Assembly: GCA_041656215.1 (NCBI GenBank) | Contig: JBBADY010000002.1 | Coordinates: 1 to 53,366, forward strand | Direction: 5' to 3' | Source: Candidatus Dojkabacteria bacterium | GTDB lineage: Bacteria; Patescibacteriota; Dojkabacteria; SC72 | Length of the DNA: 53,366 nt | Shown here: one piece after another, positions 26,891 to 42,237 of the stretch | Layout of the letters: each line of letters begins with the position of its first letter | How positions within the stretch are numbered: position 1 is the stretch's first letter | Notes under the pieces: generated by a model | Seen by the model: the letters and a program-made list of their open reading frames with translations, nothing else | What the model was told of the DNA's origin: nothing | The model's database searches: none | Program-made: the position numbers and the translations under genes

Positions 26891-27162
26891 CACCCACGAG
26901 TTTGGGATAAACGAGTATTAGGTTTCCTCTTAGAGATTTCCTCTAAAGAATACCATTTAGTGTGTATTGATTGAGTCCAACTCAGCTCCTTAAAAGTTGA
27001 AGAGTGACAGGAAGTCAAAAAAATATTCATTTAATGACTTTCTATTAGTGTGTGTGATTTTTTGGTCACACAATTCATTTAAGTCTAGATATAAATCCAA
27101 TCCAGCGTTGGTTGGTCTGTATTTAACAGCTTGCTGTTATATATTGTAAAGTTAAACGTTTT

Positions 27163-28712
<1,550 letters not shown>

Positions 28713-28763
28713 TCAAGGAGATACCCGACTTTCCTGTCACTTTTTAGCTCTTAAGGAGAATAT

Positions 28764-28780
28764 AGCTCTTTAAATTAAAA
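28764..28780 (+). promoter_or_regulatory. boxA-like antitermination element in the 16S-23S spacer
   Basis: aGCTCTTTAAattaaaa contains a 9-nt match to the E. coli rrn boxA core GCTCTTTAA. Confidence 0.4.
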
Positions 28781-28786
28781 CAATGT

Positions 28787-28946: not shown

Positions 28947-29701
28947 AAAAGATATCGGAAAGAGAAGAGAAATCTTTAATATCCGTAGATATAGAGACAG
29001 AGTTCTGTTCGTATATAGTTATTGGGGTAGGTCCAATTGTTTTTAAGTAACTATGTCAACAAACTCAGTGTTGCACATTTAAAACTGAATAGTATAGTAA
29101 TTTCAATGAAGCCAATTAAGAGCATACGGTGAATGCCTTGGCGCAAAAGACCGAAGAAGGACGTGGTAGGCTGCGATAAGCCTCGGGGAGCTGTCTAACA
29201 AGCTTTGATCCGGGGATTTCCGAATGGGGTAACCCATCTAGGCTTAAACCTAGATACCATACAGTGAATTCATAGCTGTATTGGAGGAGATGCAGGGAAG
29301 TGAAACCTCTCAGTACCTGCGAGAAAAGAGAACAATAGTTTATTTCCTGAGTAGTGGCGAGCGAAAAGGAAAGAGCCCAAACCTATGTTGTGTAAGGAGG
29401 ATCCAAATCATGAGTCGCGTAGCGACAATTGAAGAGGTGAATTCGTAGTCTGCCGATCGTGCAGCATAGGCGTAGTAAGAGTTAGTTGATTAGACGGCAG
29501 TCTAGTCGAGAAGTTACAAAATTCAACTTTATTAGAACATATCTGGAAAGGTAGACCATAGAGAGTGAAAGTCTCGTATTTTAAAAGGTTGAAACTTCTT
29601 TCTAATTTCTTGAGTACCACGGGACACGTGAAATCTTGTGGGAATCAGCCAAGACCACTTGGCAAGGCTAAATATCTTTTGCGACCGATAGTGGATTAGT
29701 T

Positions 29702-29747
<46 letters not shown>

Positions 29748-31256
29748 AACTGAAACCGTGTGCTTACAAACAGTCGGAGCCGGTATATCCGGTGACGGCG
29801 TGCCTATTGAAGAATGACCCGGTGAGTTAGTTGTGTGCGGCAAGGTTAACCATGTTTATTGGGGAGCCGAAGCGAAAGCGAGTCCTAATAGGGCGAATTT
29901 AGTCGCATGCACTAGACCCGAAACCAGGTGATCTAACCATGAGCAGGGTGAAGGAATGAGAAATCATTTTGAAGGCCCGAACTCTTTAATGTTACAAAAT
30001 TATGAGATGACTTGTGGTTAGCGGTAACATGCCAAACGAACCTGGTAATAGCTGGTTCTCCCCGAAATAGCTTTAGGGCTAGCGTTGTAATTTAATCATT
30101 GGGGGTAGAGCACTGATTGGGTTTGGGGCTCGAAAGAGTACCCAATCCACTCAAACTCCGAATACCAGTGTGAATATTACAGCAGTCAGAACTAGGGAGC
30201 TAAGTTCCTACGTTCAAGAGGGAAACAGCCCAGATTGTCAGATAAGGACCCTAAATTACATCTTAGTGGGAAAGGAAGTGGAGTTTCTCAGACAGCTAGG
30301 AGGTTGGCTCAGAGGCAGCCATCCTTTAAAAAGTGCGTAAAAGCTTACTAGTCAAGAGATTCTGCACCGAAGATTCAACGGGGCTGAAGATGTATTCCGA
30401 AGCTGCAAATTTATCTATCACTTGTGATTTGATGAGTGGTAGGGGAGCGTTCTATACATGATCTACTTAGCAGTAGATACATCGCGGTGAAGGTGACCTG
30501 TAAAGAGTTGCTGGAGCGTATAGAAGTGAGAATGCCGGGATGAGTAACGTAAAGCAGGTGAAAACCCTGCTCGCCGAATGTCTAAGGTTTCCATGGCTAT
30601 GGCAGTCATCCATGGGTTAGTCGGTCCTAAGATCAGGCCGAAAGGCGTAATCGATGGACAACAGGTTAATATTCCTGTACTACTAATATCTGCAACGGAG
30701 ATTGGGAATTGAGAAAGCAAGCCCCTCATTGGTTTGGGGTGTAAGTAACAAGTTAGTTTCTTCAGGTAAATCCGGAGAAATGTTTCTACTTCGGTAGATG
30801 CAAACGAGTTACGATGCAAAGGTGACCTTCGGGAAGCCGATTTGTTGTATTAATTCTCCAGGAAAAACTTCTAGCGTGTCTACCTTCGGGTGGACTAAAT
30901 GATATTTGTAACCGTACCGCAAACCGACACTGGTGGACTGGTATAAAAGTACCAAGGCGTACGAGTGATGCGTTGTTAAGGAACTCGGCAAATTAACCCC
31001 GTACGTTCGCAAGAAGGGGGGCCTTCCATTATAGATATTTATATTTGTGGTGATGAAGGCGGCACAGAATAGGGAGGAGCGACTAGTTACCAAAACTACA
31101 GGCGCTTGCAAATTCGTAAGAAGATGTATAAGTGCTGACACCTGCCCAATGCCAGAAGGTTAAGGAAGTTTGTCAATCGTCTGTCAGATGCACTTCGGTG
31201 CTCTGATGGTGAGGAAGCGGACGACTGAAGCCCTGGTCAATGGCGGCTGTAACTAT

Positions 31257-31990
31257 GAACCAATATCGGAGTTTTCCGGTATCTTGTAGTTGTAAAATTT
31301 GGCTATATGCTGGAATATCTGAGTATTTTTAATTACTCGTTAAAGATTATTTAATCTTTTTCAGTGAAAATATTAAAATGCAGACAATCAGCAGGAAAGA
31401 TCCAAAACCTATATCTTTAGATGATGCTTCATACATAGTTGGATTTGTAGATGGAGAAGGTAGCTTTAACATCTCGTTTAAAATTCGCAAAGATTACACT
31501 AATAGAATACAAGTATATCCAAGCTTTAATATATCTCAAAAGGAGAAAAATATTCTAGTCTGGATTCAGAGTCAGCTAAGATGCGGTACTATCCGTAATC
31601 GAGGAGATGATGTTTATTACTATGAAGTGCATAATCTGAGCAATTTGAAAAATGAGATTATACCTTTCTTTAAGAAATACAAATTAAAAACTAAGAAAAA
31701 AGAAGCGTTTGAGATATTTTCTAAAACTATTGAAAGACTCTCTTCTAAGAAACTTGAATGGGAAGATATTAAAGATATCTTTAATTTAAGAGAAGAAATA
31801 GTAGTAGGTAGAAAGAGGAAATACTCTTTAGAAGATTTAGAGAAATTTTGGAAATCCTCAGAGACTACACGCCAGACCCCTCTATTAAAAGAATAGGGTG
31901 GGATGATATAGTCCGATCTGTATGGCGACATACAGAGATATATAGAAATATGTATCCAAAATCTATGCAAATAGATTAGTAACATAAATG
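31257..31990 (+). mobile_element. intron (group I-like) in 23S helix 69, after the E. coli U1917 equivalent
   Basis: Removing 31257-31990 restores ggctGTAACTAT|AACGGTCCTAAGGTAGCG. The 5' exon ends in U and the intron ends in G. Internal GTAGTT (31286-31291) can pair with exon AACTAT, giving the U:G wobble expected at the splice site. Confidence 0.75.
31378..31896 (+). CDS. single-motif LAGLIDADG homing endonuclease (intron-encoded)
   Basis: 172 aa with the motif YIVGFVDGEGSFNI. Size and layout resemble I-CreI-type homodimeric enzymes. Confidence 0.9.
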   Translation: MQTISRKDPKPISLDDASYIVGFVDGEGSFNISFKIRKDYTNRIQVYPSFNISQKEKNILVWIQSQLRCGTIRNRGDDVYYYEVHNLSNLKNEIIPFFKKYKLKTKKKEAFEIFSKTIERLSSKKLEWEDIKDIFNLREEIVVGRKRKYSLEDLEKFWKSSETTRQTPLLKE

Positions 31991-32122
31991 AACGGTCCTA
32001 AGGTAGCGTAATACCTTGTCACTTAATTAGTGACTTGCATGAAAGGTGTAACGACTCCTCCACTGTCTCGACAACGCGCTCGGTGAAATTGAAATGGCTG
32101 TGAAGATGCGGCCTACCCATAC

Positions 32123-32153
<31 letters not shown>

Positions 32154-32562
32154 CAGCTTTGCATTGAAATATGGCTTTGGATATAGAGAATAGGTGGGAG
32201 ACTTTGAAGCCGTCTCGTCAGGGATGGTGGAGTCACAATATGGAATACCACTTTTTCAACGTTTTATTTCTAACCCCTTCCGTTATCCGGAAGATGGACA
32301 GTGCATGGTGGGCAGTTTGACTGGGGCGGTTGCTTGCTAAAAAGTACCGCAAGCGCACAAAGGTCTCCTCAACCCGGATGGAAATCGGGTGAAGAGTGCA
32401 TGAGCATAAGGAGGCTTTACTGTGAGGGAGACATCCCGATCAGTTACGAAAGTAGGTTCAAGTGACCCTTTCGCAGAATGTGGAATCGCGATTGTTTAAC
32501 GGAGATAAGCTACCCCGGGGATAACAGGCTGGTGGTGCCCGATAGTTCATATTGACGGCACC

Positions 32563-32605
<43 letters not shown>

Positions 32606-33109
32606 AAGGCCCCAAGGGTTCGACTGTTCGTCGATTAAAGTGGCACGTGAGCTGGGTTCAGACCGTCGTGAGCCAGGTCGGTCTCTATCCGGTATGGGCG
32701 TTGTATATTTGAGGGATTTGACCCTTAGTACGAAAGGATCAGGGTGCGGTAACCTCTAGTGTACCAGTTGTACTACCAAGTGCATGGCTGGGTAGCTAAG
32801 TTATTTTAGGATAAGTACTGAAAGCATATAAGTACGAAACCTTTCCCAAGATTAGATATACTTGCATAGCTTGGCTATGCGGAAGGTCCGTGGGAGACTA
32901 CCACGTTGATAGGCTCTAGGTGTAAGCATAGTAATATGTTTAGCCGAGGAGTACTAATAGACCAAAAGCTTCATATATTTTTACTATAACTATTCAGTTT
33001 TGAGTGTACAAACACTCTCTAGCTCTTTAGAATTTAAAGTCCTGAAGATTACTACTAGTAATAGTGGTATTCGTCAGGCGACAGATATTTAAATGTTAGA
33101 TTTTTGTCG

Positions 33110-39084: not shown

Positions 39085-40428
39085 ATGAAATATTTGTGTA
39101 GCTCTTGTGGTGCAGAATCACTTAGATGGTCAGGTAAATGTAGTGTATGTAACGAATGGGGAACATTAGAGGAGGTAGAAGAAAGTATTGTAATGCCGGA
39201 CTCTAATAAATCAAATATCAAAGCCGACTATAAGGCTATTACAAAGTATAAGACAAAAGCCTCTAGTAAGCAGGAGTCATCCGGTCGTACCAGTACAGGC
39301 TTTAAAGAGTTTGATAGAGTACTAGGAGGTGGTTTTGTACAGGGTGAGGTCGTACTCATAAGTGGAGAGCCGGGTGTAGGTAAATCAACAATGCTTCTTC
39401 AGGTTGCACTAAATCTCTCCCCAAACAAGAAGATCCTTTATGTATGCGGTGAGGAATCTCCCTCCCAGCTATATTCTAGATTAGAAAGATTAGCAGTAAA
39501 GGGTAGTAAACCAGAGAATATCTTTGTTACTAACGATATCTTAGTTGAGAATATATATAACCTTGTAAGTGAAAAGAAGTTTGATCTTTTAATAGTAGAC
39601 TCAATACAAAGTGTAACCTCACAAACATCTAAAGGATATCCCGGAAGCATTAGTCAGGTTAGGGCTTCAGGATCGATTCTAACAAGGCTTTCTAAAATAA
39701 CTGGTGTACCAACTATACTTGTAGGACAAATAAATAAAGGGGGAGATATCGCAGGACCGAAGATATTAGAACACATCGTAGATTGTGTCCTATATATAGA
39801 GGGAGGAGAGTTTAATCAGTACAGAATACTTAGAGGTATGAAAAATAGGTTTGGATCTACAAATGAAATAGGGGTATTTGAAATGAGCTCTAACGGTCTA
39901 AATGAAGTAGGTAATCCATCTTTAGTATTTCTAGATAGTAAATCCGCAGTATCAGGCAGTGCAATAGGGGCAATACTTCAAGGCTCTAGGGTCGTATTTG
40001 TTGAAGTACAAGCCCTAGTAGTAGAGAGAGCAGGTGAACCAGGTCCTCTTAGAAGAGTAGCTAATGGTATAAGGAAGCCTCGTTTAGATATGCTTTGTGC
40101 AGTTCTTTCTAGAAGAGGAGGAGTATTTCTAGGAGATAAAGATGTGTTTGTTAACGTGGTAGGAGGTATTACAGTTTCAGATCCTGCAGTAGACTTAGCC
40201 GTATGTGCAGCTATTAAATCAGCAGTTAAAGACTCTATTTTAGACAAAGACTCTATATACTTTGGAGAGGTAGGTCTAACAGGAGAAGTAAGGGGAACAT
40301 GGGGCTTACAGTCTGTTCTTTCAGAGGCATCAAGGGTTGGATACAAGTCAGTACATATAGGGAACACTACATTTAAAGGGAAAGAGGGGTTACAGGTATC
40401 TGTTGTAAAGCTTATCAAGAATATATAA
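39085..40428 (+). CDS. radA: DNA repair protein RadA/Sms
   Basis: Zinc finger CSSCGAESLRWSGKCSVCNEWGT, Walker A GEPGVGKST, KNRFG motif and a Lon-like C-terminal domain. Confidence 0.93.
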   Translation: MKYLCSSCGAESLRWSGKCSVCNEWGTLEEVEESIVMPDSNKSNIKADYKAITKYKTKASSKQESSGRTSTGFKEFDRVLGGGFVQGEVVLISGEPGVGKSTMLLQVALNLSPNKKILYVCGEESPSQLYSRLERLAVKGSKPENIFVTNDILVENIYNLVSEKKFDLLIVDSIQSVTSQTSKGYPGSISQVRASGSILTRLSKITGVPTILVGQINKGGDIAGPKILEHIVDCVLYIEGGEFNQYRILRGMKNRFGSTNEIGVFEMSSNGLNEVGNPSLVFLDSKSAVSGSAIGAILQGSRVVFVEVQALVVERAGEPGPLRRVANGIRKPRLDMLCAVLSRRGGVFLGDKDVFVNVVGGITVSDPAVDLAVCAAIKSAVKDSILDKDSIYFGEVGLTGEVRGTWGLQSVLSEASRVGYKSVHIGNTTFKGKEGLQVSVVKLIKNI

Positions 40429-40582
40429 AATTTTGCATAAAGATATCAACAAATTACGTAACGAACACTTGCACGTACAACTATTCGTAACATACAGGAG
40501 GCAGGGAGTATAGATAGGCTGTAGTATAGGGGATAAAGCTAAACAAATAAATTATCCACCCAAGTGCATAGCAATTATAGGC

Positions 40583-40612
40583 TTGACATAGTTGCCTAGT
40601 GGGAGATATAAT
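40583..40612 (+). promoter_or_regulatory. consensus sigma70-type promoter (TTGACA, 18 nt, TATAAT)
   Basis: -35 at 40583-40588 and -10 at 40607-40612. Confidence 0.65.
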
Positions 40613-40618
40613 ATAACG

Positions 40619-40875
40619 TTCATTAGCATACTATGTGGATATCTTAAATTTCTCCCTTTGTCTGGGGTGCCACGAACACATCTGGACAAAAGGAAAAGGG
40701 TAAGATATCTGAATCTTTCTTTCCCTGGGTTTGGTTTGGTACTACTCTGAACCTAAGGAAAGGAAGATTTGGGAAAGCATACTAAATATGCTCTCCGATA
40801 TTATCTCTCTATATATTATTTATATAGAGACATAACACCGGGGTCGGTTGGGGCAGTACCGATCCCTTTTTTCTT
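40619..40875 (+). ncRNA. candidate structured small RNA of about 257 nt, family unknown
   Basis: Bounded by the consensus promoter and a strong terminator. Long imperfect hairpins at 40638-40709 and 40712-40769, and a 10-bp hairpin at 40806-40830. No ORF. Confidence 0.5.
40840..40875 (+). terminator. Rho-independent terminator
   Basis: 9-bp stem GGGGTCGGT/ACCGATCCC, 9-nt loop, then ttttttctt. Confidence 0.8.
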
Positions 40876-40888
40876 AAATTTCTCATAT

Positions 40889-40917
40889 TTGACTTAAAGT
40901 AAATCTTTGAATATACT
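40889..40917 (+). promoter_or_regulatory. rho promoter (TTGACT, 17 nt, TATACT)
   Basis: -35 at 40889-40894 and -10 at 40912-40917. Confidence 0.55.
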
Positions 40918-40971: not shown

Positions 40972-42237
40972 ATGGTAAACAGAACAAAGAGTATAAGAGA
41001 GTATGAGTCCATGACTCTTGCTCAGCTTCGTAGTGAGGCAAAAAAGATTGAGCTTGATAATTTTATGGAGCTCCAAAAAAGAGAATTAATATTTGAAATA
41101 TTAAAGAAGTCTACTGCAAATGAAGGATTCGTATTTGTAGATGGTATATTAGAGGTTCAGAAAGATGAATCACATGGTGTACTTAGAACAGACGGTCTTT
41201 TAGCAGGTGATAATGATGTATATGTTTCTGGATCTCAGATAAAGAAATTTAGTCTAAGGACTGGAGATGTAGTTGCAGGTCCTGCAAGATTACCGAAAGA
41301 GAAAGAAAAATACTTAAGTCTACTTAGAGTAGACACAGTATACGGTAAGCCAGCTGCAGAGGCAGCAGAGAGACCTCAGTTCATGAAACTAACTCCGGTA
41401 TTTCCAAACAAACAAATCAAATTAGAGACTACCCCAGAGGTTATTTCAACTAGGGTAATCGATTTACTTTCCCCAGTTGGCTTCGGTCAGAGATCAATGT
41501 TAGTATCTCCTCCTAAGGCAGGTAAGACATTCTTACTTAAAGATATTGCTGCAGGTATTGCAACTAATCATCCTAAAGCAAAGTTAATGGTTGTACTTGT
41601 AGGTGAAAGACCAGAAGAGGTAACTGATATGAAAAGATTTGTAAAAGGAGAGGTATATGCATCTAACTTTGATGAATTACCAGAGCATAACTGTAAGGTA
41701 GCTGAAATGGCACTACAAAAAGCTATGCGTATGGTAGAGTGGGGAGAGGATGTAATAATACTGATGGATAGTATTACAAGACTTGCTCGTGCTTACAATA
41801 TAACTATGCCTACATCAGGAAAAACACTCTCAGGAGGATTCGATCCTGTAGCACTGTATCCACCTAAGAGATTCTTTGGTGCTGCTAGAAACTTCGAAGA
41901 GGGTGGAAGTCTTACCATCATTGCAACCGCATTAGTAGAAACAGGAAGTAGAATGGATGATCTGGTATATGAAGAGTTTAAAGGTACAGGAAATATGGAA
42001 TTACATCTTGATAGGCAGCTTGCTAACAAGAGAATATATCCATCTATTGATGTAAACAAATCAGGTACAAGAAATGAAGAGCTACTCTTAGGTAAAGAAG
42101 TTTTGAATCAATCATGGAGGATAAGGAGAATGCTTGAGATACTTGATCAAAATGAGAATCCTACAGAAGTACTCGTAAGTCAGCTTAGGAGAACTAAATC
42201 TAACGAAGAGTTTCTTGCAACATTGCACGAAGCGTAA
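40972..42237 (+). CDS. rho: transcription termination factor Rho
   Basis: N-terminal LAQLRSEAKKIELDNFMELQKRELIFEILK, RNA-binding domain, Walker A SPPKAGKT. ATG 40972 is preferred over the upstream TTG at 40921; ATG 41011 is also possible. Confidence 0.93.
   Translation: MVNRTKSIREYESMTLAQLRSEAKKIELDNFMELQKRELIFEILKKSTANEGFVFVDGILEVQKDESHGVLRTDGLLAGDNDVYVSGSQIKKFSLRTGDVVAGPARLPKEKEKYLSLLRVDTVYGKPAAEAAERPQFMKLTPVFPNKQIKLETTPEVISTRVIDLLSPVGFGQRSMLVSPPKAGKTFLLKDIAAGIATNHPKAKLMVVLVGERPEEVTDMKRFVKGEVYASNFDELPEHNCKVAEMALQKAMRMVEWGEDVIILMDSITRLARAYNITMPTSGKTLSGGFDPVALYPPKRFFGAARNFEEGGSLTIIATALVETGSRMDDLVYEEFKGTGNMELHLDRQLANKRIYPSIDVNKSGTRNEELLLGKEVLNQSWRIRRMLEILDQNENPTEVLVSQLRRTKSNEEFLATLHEA

Follow-up and report, generated by a model that had tools for sequence, protein, structure and literature searches.

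A conserved, structured non-coding RNA unit upstream of rho in Candidatus Dojkabacteria and its possible role in transcription elongation or termination control

The DNA analyzed here (the window, 53,366 nt) is part of a metagenome-assembled genome of the ultra-small Candidatus Dojkabacteria (WS6; Patescibacteria, or candidate phyla radiation [CPR]) that comprises 0.80 Mb in 91 contigs and is 98.7% complete. Between radA (39085-40428) and rho, it contains a genuine, conserved, and highly structured non-coding unit that has its own consensus promoter. The promoter, five hairpins, and a terminator (a hairpin followed by U6) delimit an RNA of ~255 nt without a conserved open reading frame (ORF), and rho is the sole gene that is consistently linked to it. 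Our tentative reading is that this RNA is a modular unit dedicated to the rho locus and that it provides nut-like or attenuator-type control of elongation or termination. A cis-acting element on nascent transcripts at rho fits the facts better than a free housekeeping RNA does, and it is favored because of the strict linkage to rho, the conservation of a loop rather than of terminator function, the boxA-like start, and the existence of phage copies that have no terminator. No description of this RNA was found in literature searches.

The fold of the RNA is far more stable than that of comparable sequences. The minimum free energy of 40618-40875 is -95.1 kcal/mol, compared with -61.9 ± 4.7 kcal/mol for 200 dinucleotide shuffles (z = -7.09), none of which was as good. 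Hairpins 1 and 2 represent a single ~60-nt module in two versions. The module consists of a basal stem, a clamp of U-A, C-G, and C-G pairs, a 1x1 mismatch, a 4-bp helix, the pairs U.G, G.U, and G-C (5'-UGG/5'-CUG), and a variable tip hairpin. The core reads UCCC-UUUG-UCUGG ... CUGG-ACAAA-A-GGA in hairpin 1 and UCCC-UGGG-UUUGG ... CUGA-ACCUA-A-GGA in hairpin 2. A covariance model of the module matches hairpin 1 (40644-40704) at 67.1 bits and hairpin 2 (40713-40769) at 56 bits; the E values of the covariance models are rough. The UCC/GGA clamp and the tandem G.U core UGG/CUG are invariant among module instances that were gathered with a regular expression forcing part of this core, and the 4-bp helix covaries (AGGG/CCCU, ACGG/CCGU, AAGG/CCUU, UUUG/CAAA, and UAUG/CAUA).

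Pairing is supported by compensatory change throughout the RNA. With 81 module instances aligned by plain MAFFT, 96.2% of the cells are paired, compared with 35 to 57% when the partner strand is slid. Both sides have changed in 395 cells (50 to 181 in the slid controls), and double changes occur in 13 of the 20 main-helix pairs. In the 3' domain, 91.5% of cells pair (~50% when slid) and 217 cells are doubly changed (32 to 71 when slid), with changes on both sides in four of the eight pairs of hairpin 3 and in all nine counted pairs of hairpin 4. The module, in the form of hairpins 1 and 2 at this locus only, and hairpin 5 are each single copy in the genome, and the element is therefore not a general terminator or repeat. 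A small-protein gene was also considered and was rejected, as there is no conserved ORF and the longest closed ORF has a median length of 27 amino acids among 82 homologs.

The original prediction, made from the sequence of the window, had described an orphan transcription unit with a near-consensus promoter, a strong terminator with a 9-bp stem and a T-tract, four hairpins upstream of it, no ORF, and a second promoter ahead of rho, the whole encoding a structured RNA of unknown class. All of these features are present in the window (Table 1). The four upstream hairpins appear in the fold where they had been placed, the segment holds no conserved ORF, and the class remains without a match in Rfam at the gathering score. 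The conservation and covariation that the prediction had named as checks were found as well, the latter in the modules and in hairpins 3 to 5.

Table 1. Features of the RNA unit and of the adjoining rho gene (positions in the window)
Feature	Position	Strand	Details and basis
DnaA-box-like motif TTATCCACC	40552..40560	+	8/9 match to TTATCCACA; upstream of P1
TTATAGGC element	40575..40582	+	Abuts the -35 hexamer of P1; alignment of rho loci
Promoter P1, TTGACA-18-TATAAT	40583..40612	+	12/12 match; only 12/12 match in a 1-kb scan; inferred start ~40618-40620
boxA-like 5' end GUUCAUUAGCA	40618..40628	+	2 mismatches to GYUCUUUAANA
Conserved UGUGGAUAU	40634..40642	+	DnaA-box-like on the DNA (ATATCCACA, minus strand, 8/9); homolog alignment
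Hairpin 1 (module copy 1)	40637..40709	+	Closed by GGAUAUCUUA/UAAGAUAUCU; fold and covariance model
Hairpin 2 (module copy 2)	40712..40769	+	Long pyrimidine/purine stem; fold and covariance model
Hairpin 3, AGCAUA/UAUGCU (GGAAAGCAUA...UAUGCUCUCC)	40772..40796	+	Followed by conserved linker CGAU; fold
Hairpin 4, AU-rich	40801..40835	+	~13-bp stem; fold
Hairpin 5 GGGGUCGGU-UGGGGCAGU-ACCGAUCCC (40840-40866) and U6	40840..40872	+	9-bp stem, 40840-40848 with 40858-40866
Promoter P2 for rho, TTGACT-17-TATACT	40889..40917	+	10/12 match
rho coding sequence	40972..42237	+	Likely ATG at 40972; Pfam Rho_N, Rho_RNA_bind, and ATPase domain

BLASTN searches located the segment in 36 of 41 related genomes, including all 24 of the same family. 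Of 80 rho loci, each from a different species, nearly all have the RNA immediately ahead of rho, and among distant Dojkabacteria, all 16 loci have rho downstream of the element. The number of modules varies between lineages: there are two hairpin-2-type copies in the deep-branching family f2 and one copy in f4, and hairpin 2 is degenerate or deleted in many genera of the window's own family. At one locus (L112; G038:C24), an extra copy of the module was seen past the terminal hairpin 5, within the rho leader region.

A reduced form of the unit is found beyond these families. Minimal units were recovered in families f10, f16, f32, and f36 by three approaches: a 3'-domain covariance model, a hairpin-5 model, and a pattern scan that covered 401 genomes of the phylum. 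In each unit, a consensus promoter is followed after ~8 nt by a hairpin whose loop is NGGGGCAGU and then by a second promoter. The downstream gene is rho in f10, f16, and f32; the f36 contig stops short of it. The gene upstream of the minimal unit in f10 is not radA, and the linkage of the unit or of the lone terminal hairpin to rho holds whatever gene lies upstream. Several weak matches of the hairpin model (L175, L176, L178, L180, and L182) were set aside as generic terminators or coding sequence.

In a comparison of 11 lineages, the stem of hairpin 5 is 99% paired, compensatory changes affect six of its nine pairs (none in the slid controls), and the loop GGGGCAGU does not vary. The cross-family hairpins were gathered by structure- or pattern-based searches, which biases these pair counts, and the linkage to rho serves as an independent check. 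The wobble positions of the hairpin are valid as G.U pairs on the + strand only, and the constraint therefore acts on the + strand RNA. As judged from these comparisons, the core hairpin is older than the full ~255-nt RNA.

In the window, hairpin 5 has the form of an intrinsic terminator, with a G+C-rich 9-bp stem directly before U6, and a terminator scan reported a terminator-like hairpin at 40846-40864 followed by TTTTTT. All 27 nt of the hairpin are identical in 68 diverse Dojkabacteria sequences. The U-tract is more variable: at least five T's occur in the 8 nt past the stem in 67 of the 82 Dojkabacteria homologs, and four or fewer occur in the other 15 (~18%), so that the strong terminator described from the window is not shared by all of its relatives. 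The U-tract is missing after hairpin 5 in family f32 and in two viral contigs described below (L155 and L156). What these sequences indicate is that termination at hairpin 5 is not the conserved property and that the loop is. In the window, the apparent strength of the terminator and the separate promoter of rho mean that a discrete RNA of ~255 nt is probably the main product. Pairing of the hairpin 5 loop with the rho mRNA was considered and was dropped, as the best duplex (-12.5 kcal/mol) lies within the coding region and is no better than those at random places in the window.

The unit begins with a sequence resembling boxA. The boxA consensus is GYUCUUUAANA, and boxA elements also regulate genes other than those for rRNA (PMC5725501). 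Close relatives of the window, from sister species, read GUUCUUUAAUA, which is a perfect match. With up to two mismatches allowed in the first 32 nt, boxA was found in 59 of 82 homologs, compared with 5.8% of other 32-nt windows of the same RNAs; two of the matches are perfect, and the consensus is found across the family. The genome encodes NusB (contig C17; 108 bits), and S10 (NusE) is assumed to be present. Separately, we observed boxA-like sequences around the rRNA genes of the window: the leader (27020-27090) has two copies of AUUCAUUUAA flanking a GUGUGUGA/UCACACA hairpin, and the 16S-23S spacer (28763-28785) has a canonical boxA, GCUCUUUAAA.

This start resembles those of lambda nut sites and rrn leaders, in which boxA occurs with boxB or boxC and acts with NusB-S10, NusA, and NusG. 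In both, the boxA-like sequence comes right past the promoter and is followed by conserved hairpins in an untranslated transcript, and NusB is encoded in the genome. However, the GU-core module and the hairpins with the GGGGCAGU loop are unrelated to boxB, and the host element occurs at the rho locus alone, with no copy in the rrn leader. Unlike nut sites, the element ends in a terminator-like hairpin that is followed by a second promoter, and no N-like protein is known here. The put RNA of phage HK022 and the EAR RNA of Bacillus, which were compared by architecture only, also have one or two irregular conserved hairpins early in the transcript and occur in phage operon leaders. By analogy with them, the element could work on RNA polymerase directly, with no dedicated protein involved.

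Parts of the element were also found in viral contigs. Exact full-length hairpin 5 had no matches there, and its inner 19 nt matched four IMG/VR contigs, one of which (L157) was rejected as a chance match inside a lysozyme-like ORF. The other three, all low in GC, carry hairpin 5, with or without hairpin 4, the module, or boxA, in the leaders of early operons and usually without a U-tract. In L154 (IMGVR_UViG_3300049048_000097), the whole 3' domain was matched at 62 bits ahead of a RecE-like operon. In L155 (IMGVR_UViG_3300032318_001718), a promoter, a weak boxA, a module, and a hairpin 5 without a U-tract head an operon encoding a replication-initiation protein; the module scores 32 bits with a model that was not trained on this contig. 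In L156 (IMGVR_UViG_3300010356_000227), a perfect boxA (GCUCUUUAAAAC), the inner hairpin, and a hairpin resembling the module lie between genes of one orientation, and a near-identical stretch (L153) occurs on contig C29 of a relative's genome (G009). The viral elements are co-oriented with, and lie ahead of, RecE-like, replication-initiation, and HNH genes. All three contigs are likely to be phages of Dojkabacteria. The early recombination and replication operons that they head are where lambda has nutL and nutR, and this placement fits a cis role in getting polymerase past termination.

If the RNA acts in cis, the nascent P1 transcript would recruit host elongation factors, with NusB and S10 binding boxA and a further factor, or RNA polymerase itself, binding the modules and the GGGGCAGU loop. 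By default, transcription from P1 would stop at hairpin 5 and yield the discrete ~255-nt RNA. Formation of the complex, or a weak U-tract, would let polymerase read into rho in a termination-resistant state. Rho synthesis would thereby gain a second, factor-sensitive input beside P2, and the P1 input could also be sensitive to DnaA, given the DnaA-box-like motifs that bracket P1. In phages, the hairpin, alone or accompanied by the module and boxA, would likewise help polymerase to pass termination in the early operons for replication and recombination.

Of the functions proposed in the original prediction, an attenuator coupled to Rho autoregulation comes closest to this tentative reading as far as attenuation at rho is concerned. 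There is a general likeness to the rho leaders of Escherichia coli and Bacillus subtilis, where rho is subject to autogenous attenuation: there too, the gene is preceded by a long, promoter-driven stretch without translation within which transcription can end early. Known rho leaders rely on Rho-dependent, unstructured, C-rich sites. Here, in contrast, a structured hairpin of invariant sequence, with a U-tract, serves as the stop signal. A boxA-like element, of a kind that normally counteracts Rho, is present in the RNA, and rho has a promoter to itself.

A wider scenario is possible, though we hold it with less confidence than the nut-like or attenuator-type reading. It is that of an undescribed RNA-based system of Rho control in Patescibacteria, in which an ancient promoter-proximal hairpin with the fixed loop GGGGCAGU before rho was expanded in Dojkabacteria with boxA and GU-core modules to ~255 nt, and in which phages captured parts of it so that transcription of their early operons passes termination. 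A host elongation or termination factor, or RNA polymerase, would then bind the hairpin and modules, which would form a new class of antitermination or anti-Rho element. Almost nothing is known of gene regulation in Patescibacteria, which cannot be grown alone, and the family offers a covariation-supported RNA with a defined architecture, a fixed genomic partner in rho, and homologous parts in the early operons of phages. Rho is a global terminator and also silences foreign DNA. If the RNA controls Rho synthesis or blocks termination, it would provide a testable handle on transcription control in CPR bacteria and on the conflict between phage and host, and it would widen the small set of processive antiterminators by a new type of RNA element. 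The element could also serve to mark the rho locus and the phages of Dojkabacteria by sequence.

Several observations weigh against a cis-acting element. The window's hairpin 5 resembles a strong intrinsic terminator in its G+C-rich 9-bp stem and U6, P2 is independently conserved, and at this locus alone a separate small RNA (sRNA) gene is the simplest reading. The window's own boxA is two mismatches off the consensus, and some genera have no recognizable boxA. Inspection of the conserved segments found no antiterminator pairing to either strand of hairpin 5, and no factor that would bind the modules or the hairpin 5 loop was identified. Finally, one hairpin-5-like element is not next to rho. 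This element (L174; G069:C1:33551-33589, minus strand) is a promoter-proximal hairpin with the loop GGGGGCAGU that precedes three small ORFs without an assigned function instead of rho, and it may be part of a prophage or a second use of the element.

A trans-acting protein sponge is a serious rival, which we judge possible but doubtful. An independent, abundant RNA would titrate a protein (Rho, a Nus factor, or RNA polymerase) via its modules and the GGGGCAGU loop, boxA would only shield the synthesis of this RNA from Rho, and the phage copies would manipulate the same protein. Such a role is in keeping with the consensus promoter and strong terminator in the window, with the separate conserved promoter of rho, with a module copy number that varies as it does in sponge RNAs, and with the full invariance of hairpin 5 within its class, which suggests tight contact with a protein. 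The RNA also shares with sRNA genes and sponge RNAs (6S and CsrB type) a sigma-70-type promoter, an intrinsic terminator, a stable fold, and repeated modules. However, it has no rod or bubble as in 6S RNA, its GGA motifs are paired and not exposed in loops as in CsrB, and its strict linkage to rho and the terminator-less phage copies are unlike stand-alone sRNAs. No terminator follows hairpin 5 in viral copies and in some hosts, and the element there is part of a longer transcript; the minimal forms would yield only a hairpin RNA of ~40 nt; and adjacency to rho across families would not be required. The ligands of the primary binding site of Rho are YC rich, which the G-rich loop is not. The independence from rho that had originally been proposed for the unit is not supported: it has its own promoter and rho has a separate one, but it is linked to rho whatever the upstream gene. 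The viral copies lie inside operon leaders and mostly have no terminators.

The surroundings of the promoters are conserved as well. P1 keeps its position in ~80 homologs. The TTATAGG element that directly precedes its -35 hexamer is likewise fixed in position, and Dojkabacteria share the string (A/C)TATAGG-TTGACA with the minimal units of other families. In the window's genome, sites of this type comprise the copy at the locus and one likely chance match, on contig C57, without promoter context. A P2 pattern, TTGAC-N17-19-TAnnnT, occurs within 60 nt past hairpin 5 in 80 of 82 unique homologs. DnaA-box-like motifs bracket P1. In most relatives, the equivalent of the upstream box is TGTGGATA, just 5' of the -35 hexamer; a motif with at most one mismatch was found at -110 to -45 in 45 of 78 loci, compared with 0.014 expected from flanking DNA, and at +10 to +19 in 62 of 78, compared with 0.006 expected. 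The conservation of UGUGGAUAU, which forms the downstream motif, is not explained by pairing, as its 3' partner is not conserved. Given these motifs, P1 may be regulated by DnaA. A boxC-like RNA motif, UGUGGAU, had been considered at this site and was dropped for the DnaA-box reading, with a second copy lying upstream of the promoter and outside the transcript.

From such motifs, it might be proposed that hairpin 5 is a palindromic operator at -45 to -75 of P2, that the TGTGGATA motifs are sites for DnaA or other transcription factors, and that the RNA is a by-product. The abundance of DnaA-box-like motifs around P1, far above background, and the constant placement of hairpin 5 at 10 to 36 nt before the -35 hexamer of P2 are in line with this proposal. 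We nevertheless think it quite improbable, given that the mismatches in hairpin 5 are G.U pairs on the + strand only, that the asymmetric loop is its most conserved part, and that hairpins 1 to 4 show extensive compensatory changes. Nor is the site an origin or a terminus: GC skew is uniformly positive (0.13 to 0.33) throughout the window, and the + strand carries the genes on either side. With no switch in gene orientation either, oriC and dif were both rejected.

A tandem-aptamer riboswitch, in which the two modules would sense a small ligand or a metal ion and thereby set termination at hairpin 5 and so read-through into rho, is improbable as well. Its attraction lies in the compact module hairpins with invariant internal nucleotides, single or in tandem, upstream of a terminator. 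Tandem G.U pairs are, in addition, known metal-binding sites. However, two unrelated hairpins separate the modules from hairpin 5, no mutually exclusive terminator/antiterminator pairing was found by inspection, and the minimal units elsewhere have the hairpin without the module. Furthermore, a separate promoter follows the supposed expression platform. As there is no match to an Rfam riboswitch aptamer either, assignment to a known riboswitch class was rejected.

The RNA belongs to no catalogued class. Scans of the whole window against Rfam 15 at the gathering score gave no match in this region, and a permissive search of a 601-nt region (E values up to 10) returned only eukaryotic snoRNA and miRNA models, the best at E = 0.043, which are attributed to chance. 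A highly divergent signal recognition particle (SRP) RNA or 6S RNA missed by the Rfam models is very unlikely. Neither SRP RNA nor 6S RNA was detected anywhere in the genome, which leaves room for such an RNA, and the length is near that of long SRP RNAs. However, the RNA lacks a helix-8 motif, forms five separate hairpins and not a 6S-type rod, and is reduced to a single hairpin in its minimal forms. SRP RNA was excluded on several grounds: RF00169 and RF01854 matched neither the region (E values up to 10) nor the genome, the Pfam domains PF02978 and PF00448 of Ffh and FtsY were not found in the genome, and a phmmer search with E. coli Ffh (a query validated against PDB) against all six-frame ORFs of the genome gave no match at E values up to 10. 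Among the 41 relatives, none has an SRP GTPase domain above the cutoff. SRP subunits are reported to be absent in many CPR bacteria (PMC8080830). Searches across the phylum for SRP RNA, Ffh, and FtsY were likewise empty and were made without a positive control. The 6S-like regulator suggested in the original prediction was similarly abandoned, as RF00013 was unmatched and the covariation-backed fold is a string of separate hairpins without the ~180- to 200-nt rod and large central bubble of 6S RNA.

Genome-wide searches placed the remaining housekeeping RNAs elsewhere, with the transfer-messenger RNA at the start of the window and the RNase P RNA on contig C59. The RNase P RNA match (G000:C59:3838-3998) scores 81.8 bits, which is below the gathering score, and covers model positions 60-219 near a contig end. 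The 23S rRNA match (29105-32977) spans 3,873 nt for 2,925 model positions and thus contains insertions of ~950 nt. Among the neighboring genes, clpC lies upstream of the RNA unit and a LysM-M23 peptidase gene lies downstream. The genes of the window generally have no Shine-Dalgarno sequence, and several starts (e.g., 36593, 9063, and 42276) have a TATAAT-like box 6 to 8 nt before the ATG, which suggests widespread leaderless mRNAs. A special ribosome-binding motif for rho (UUUCCC) was accordingly dropped as a candidate, since Shine-Dalgarno sequences are generally missing from the genes of the window and many of these genes look leaderless.
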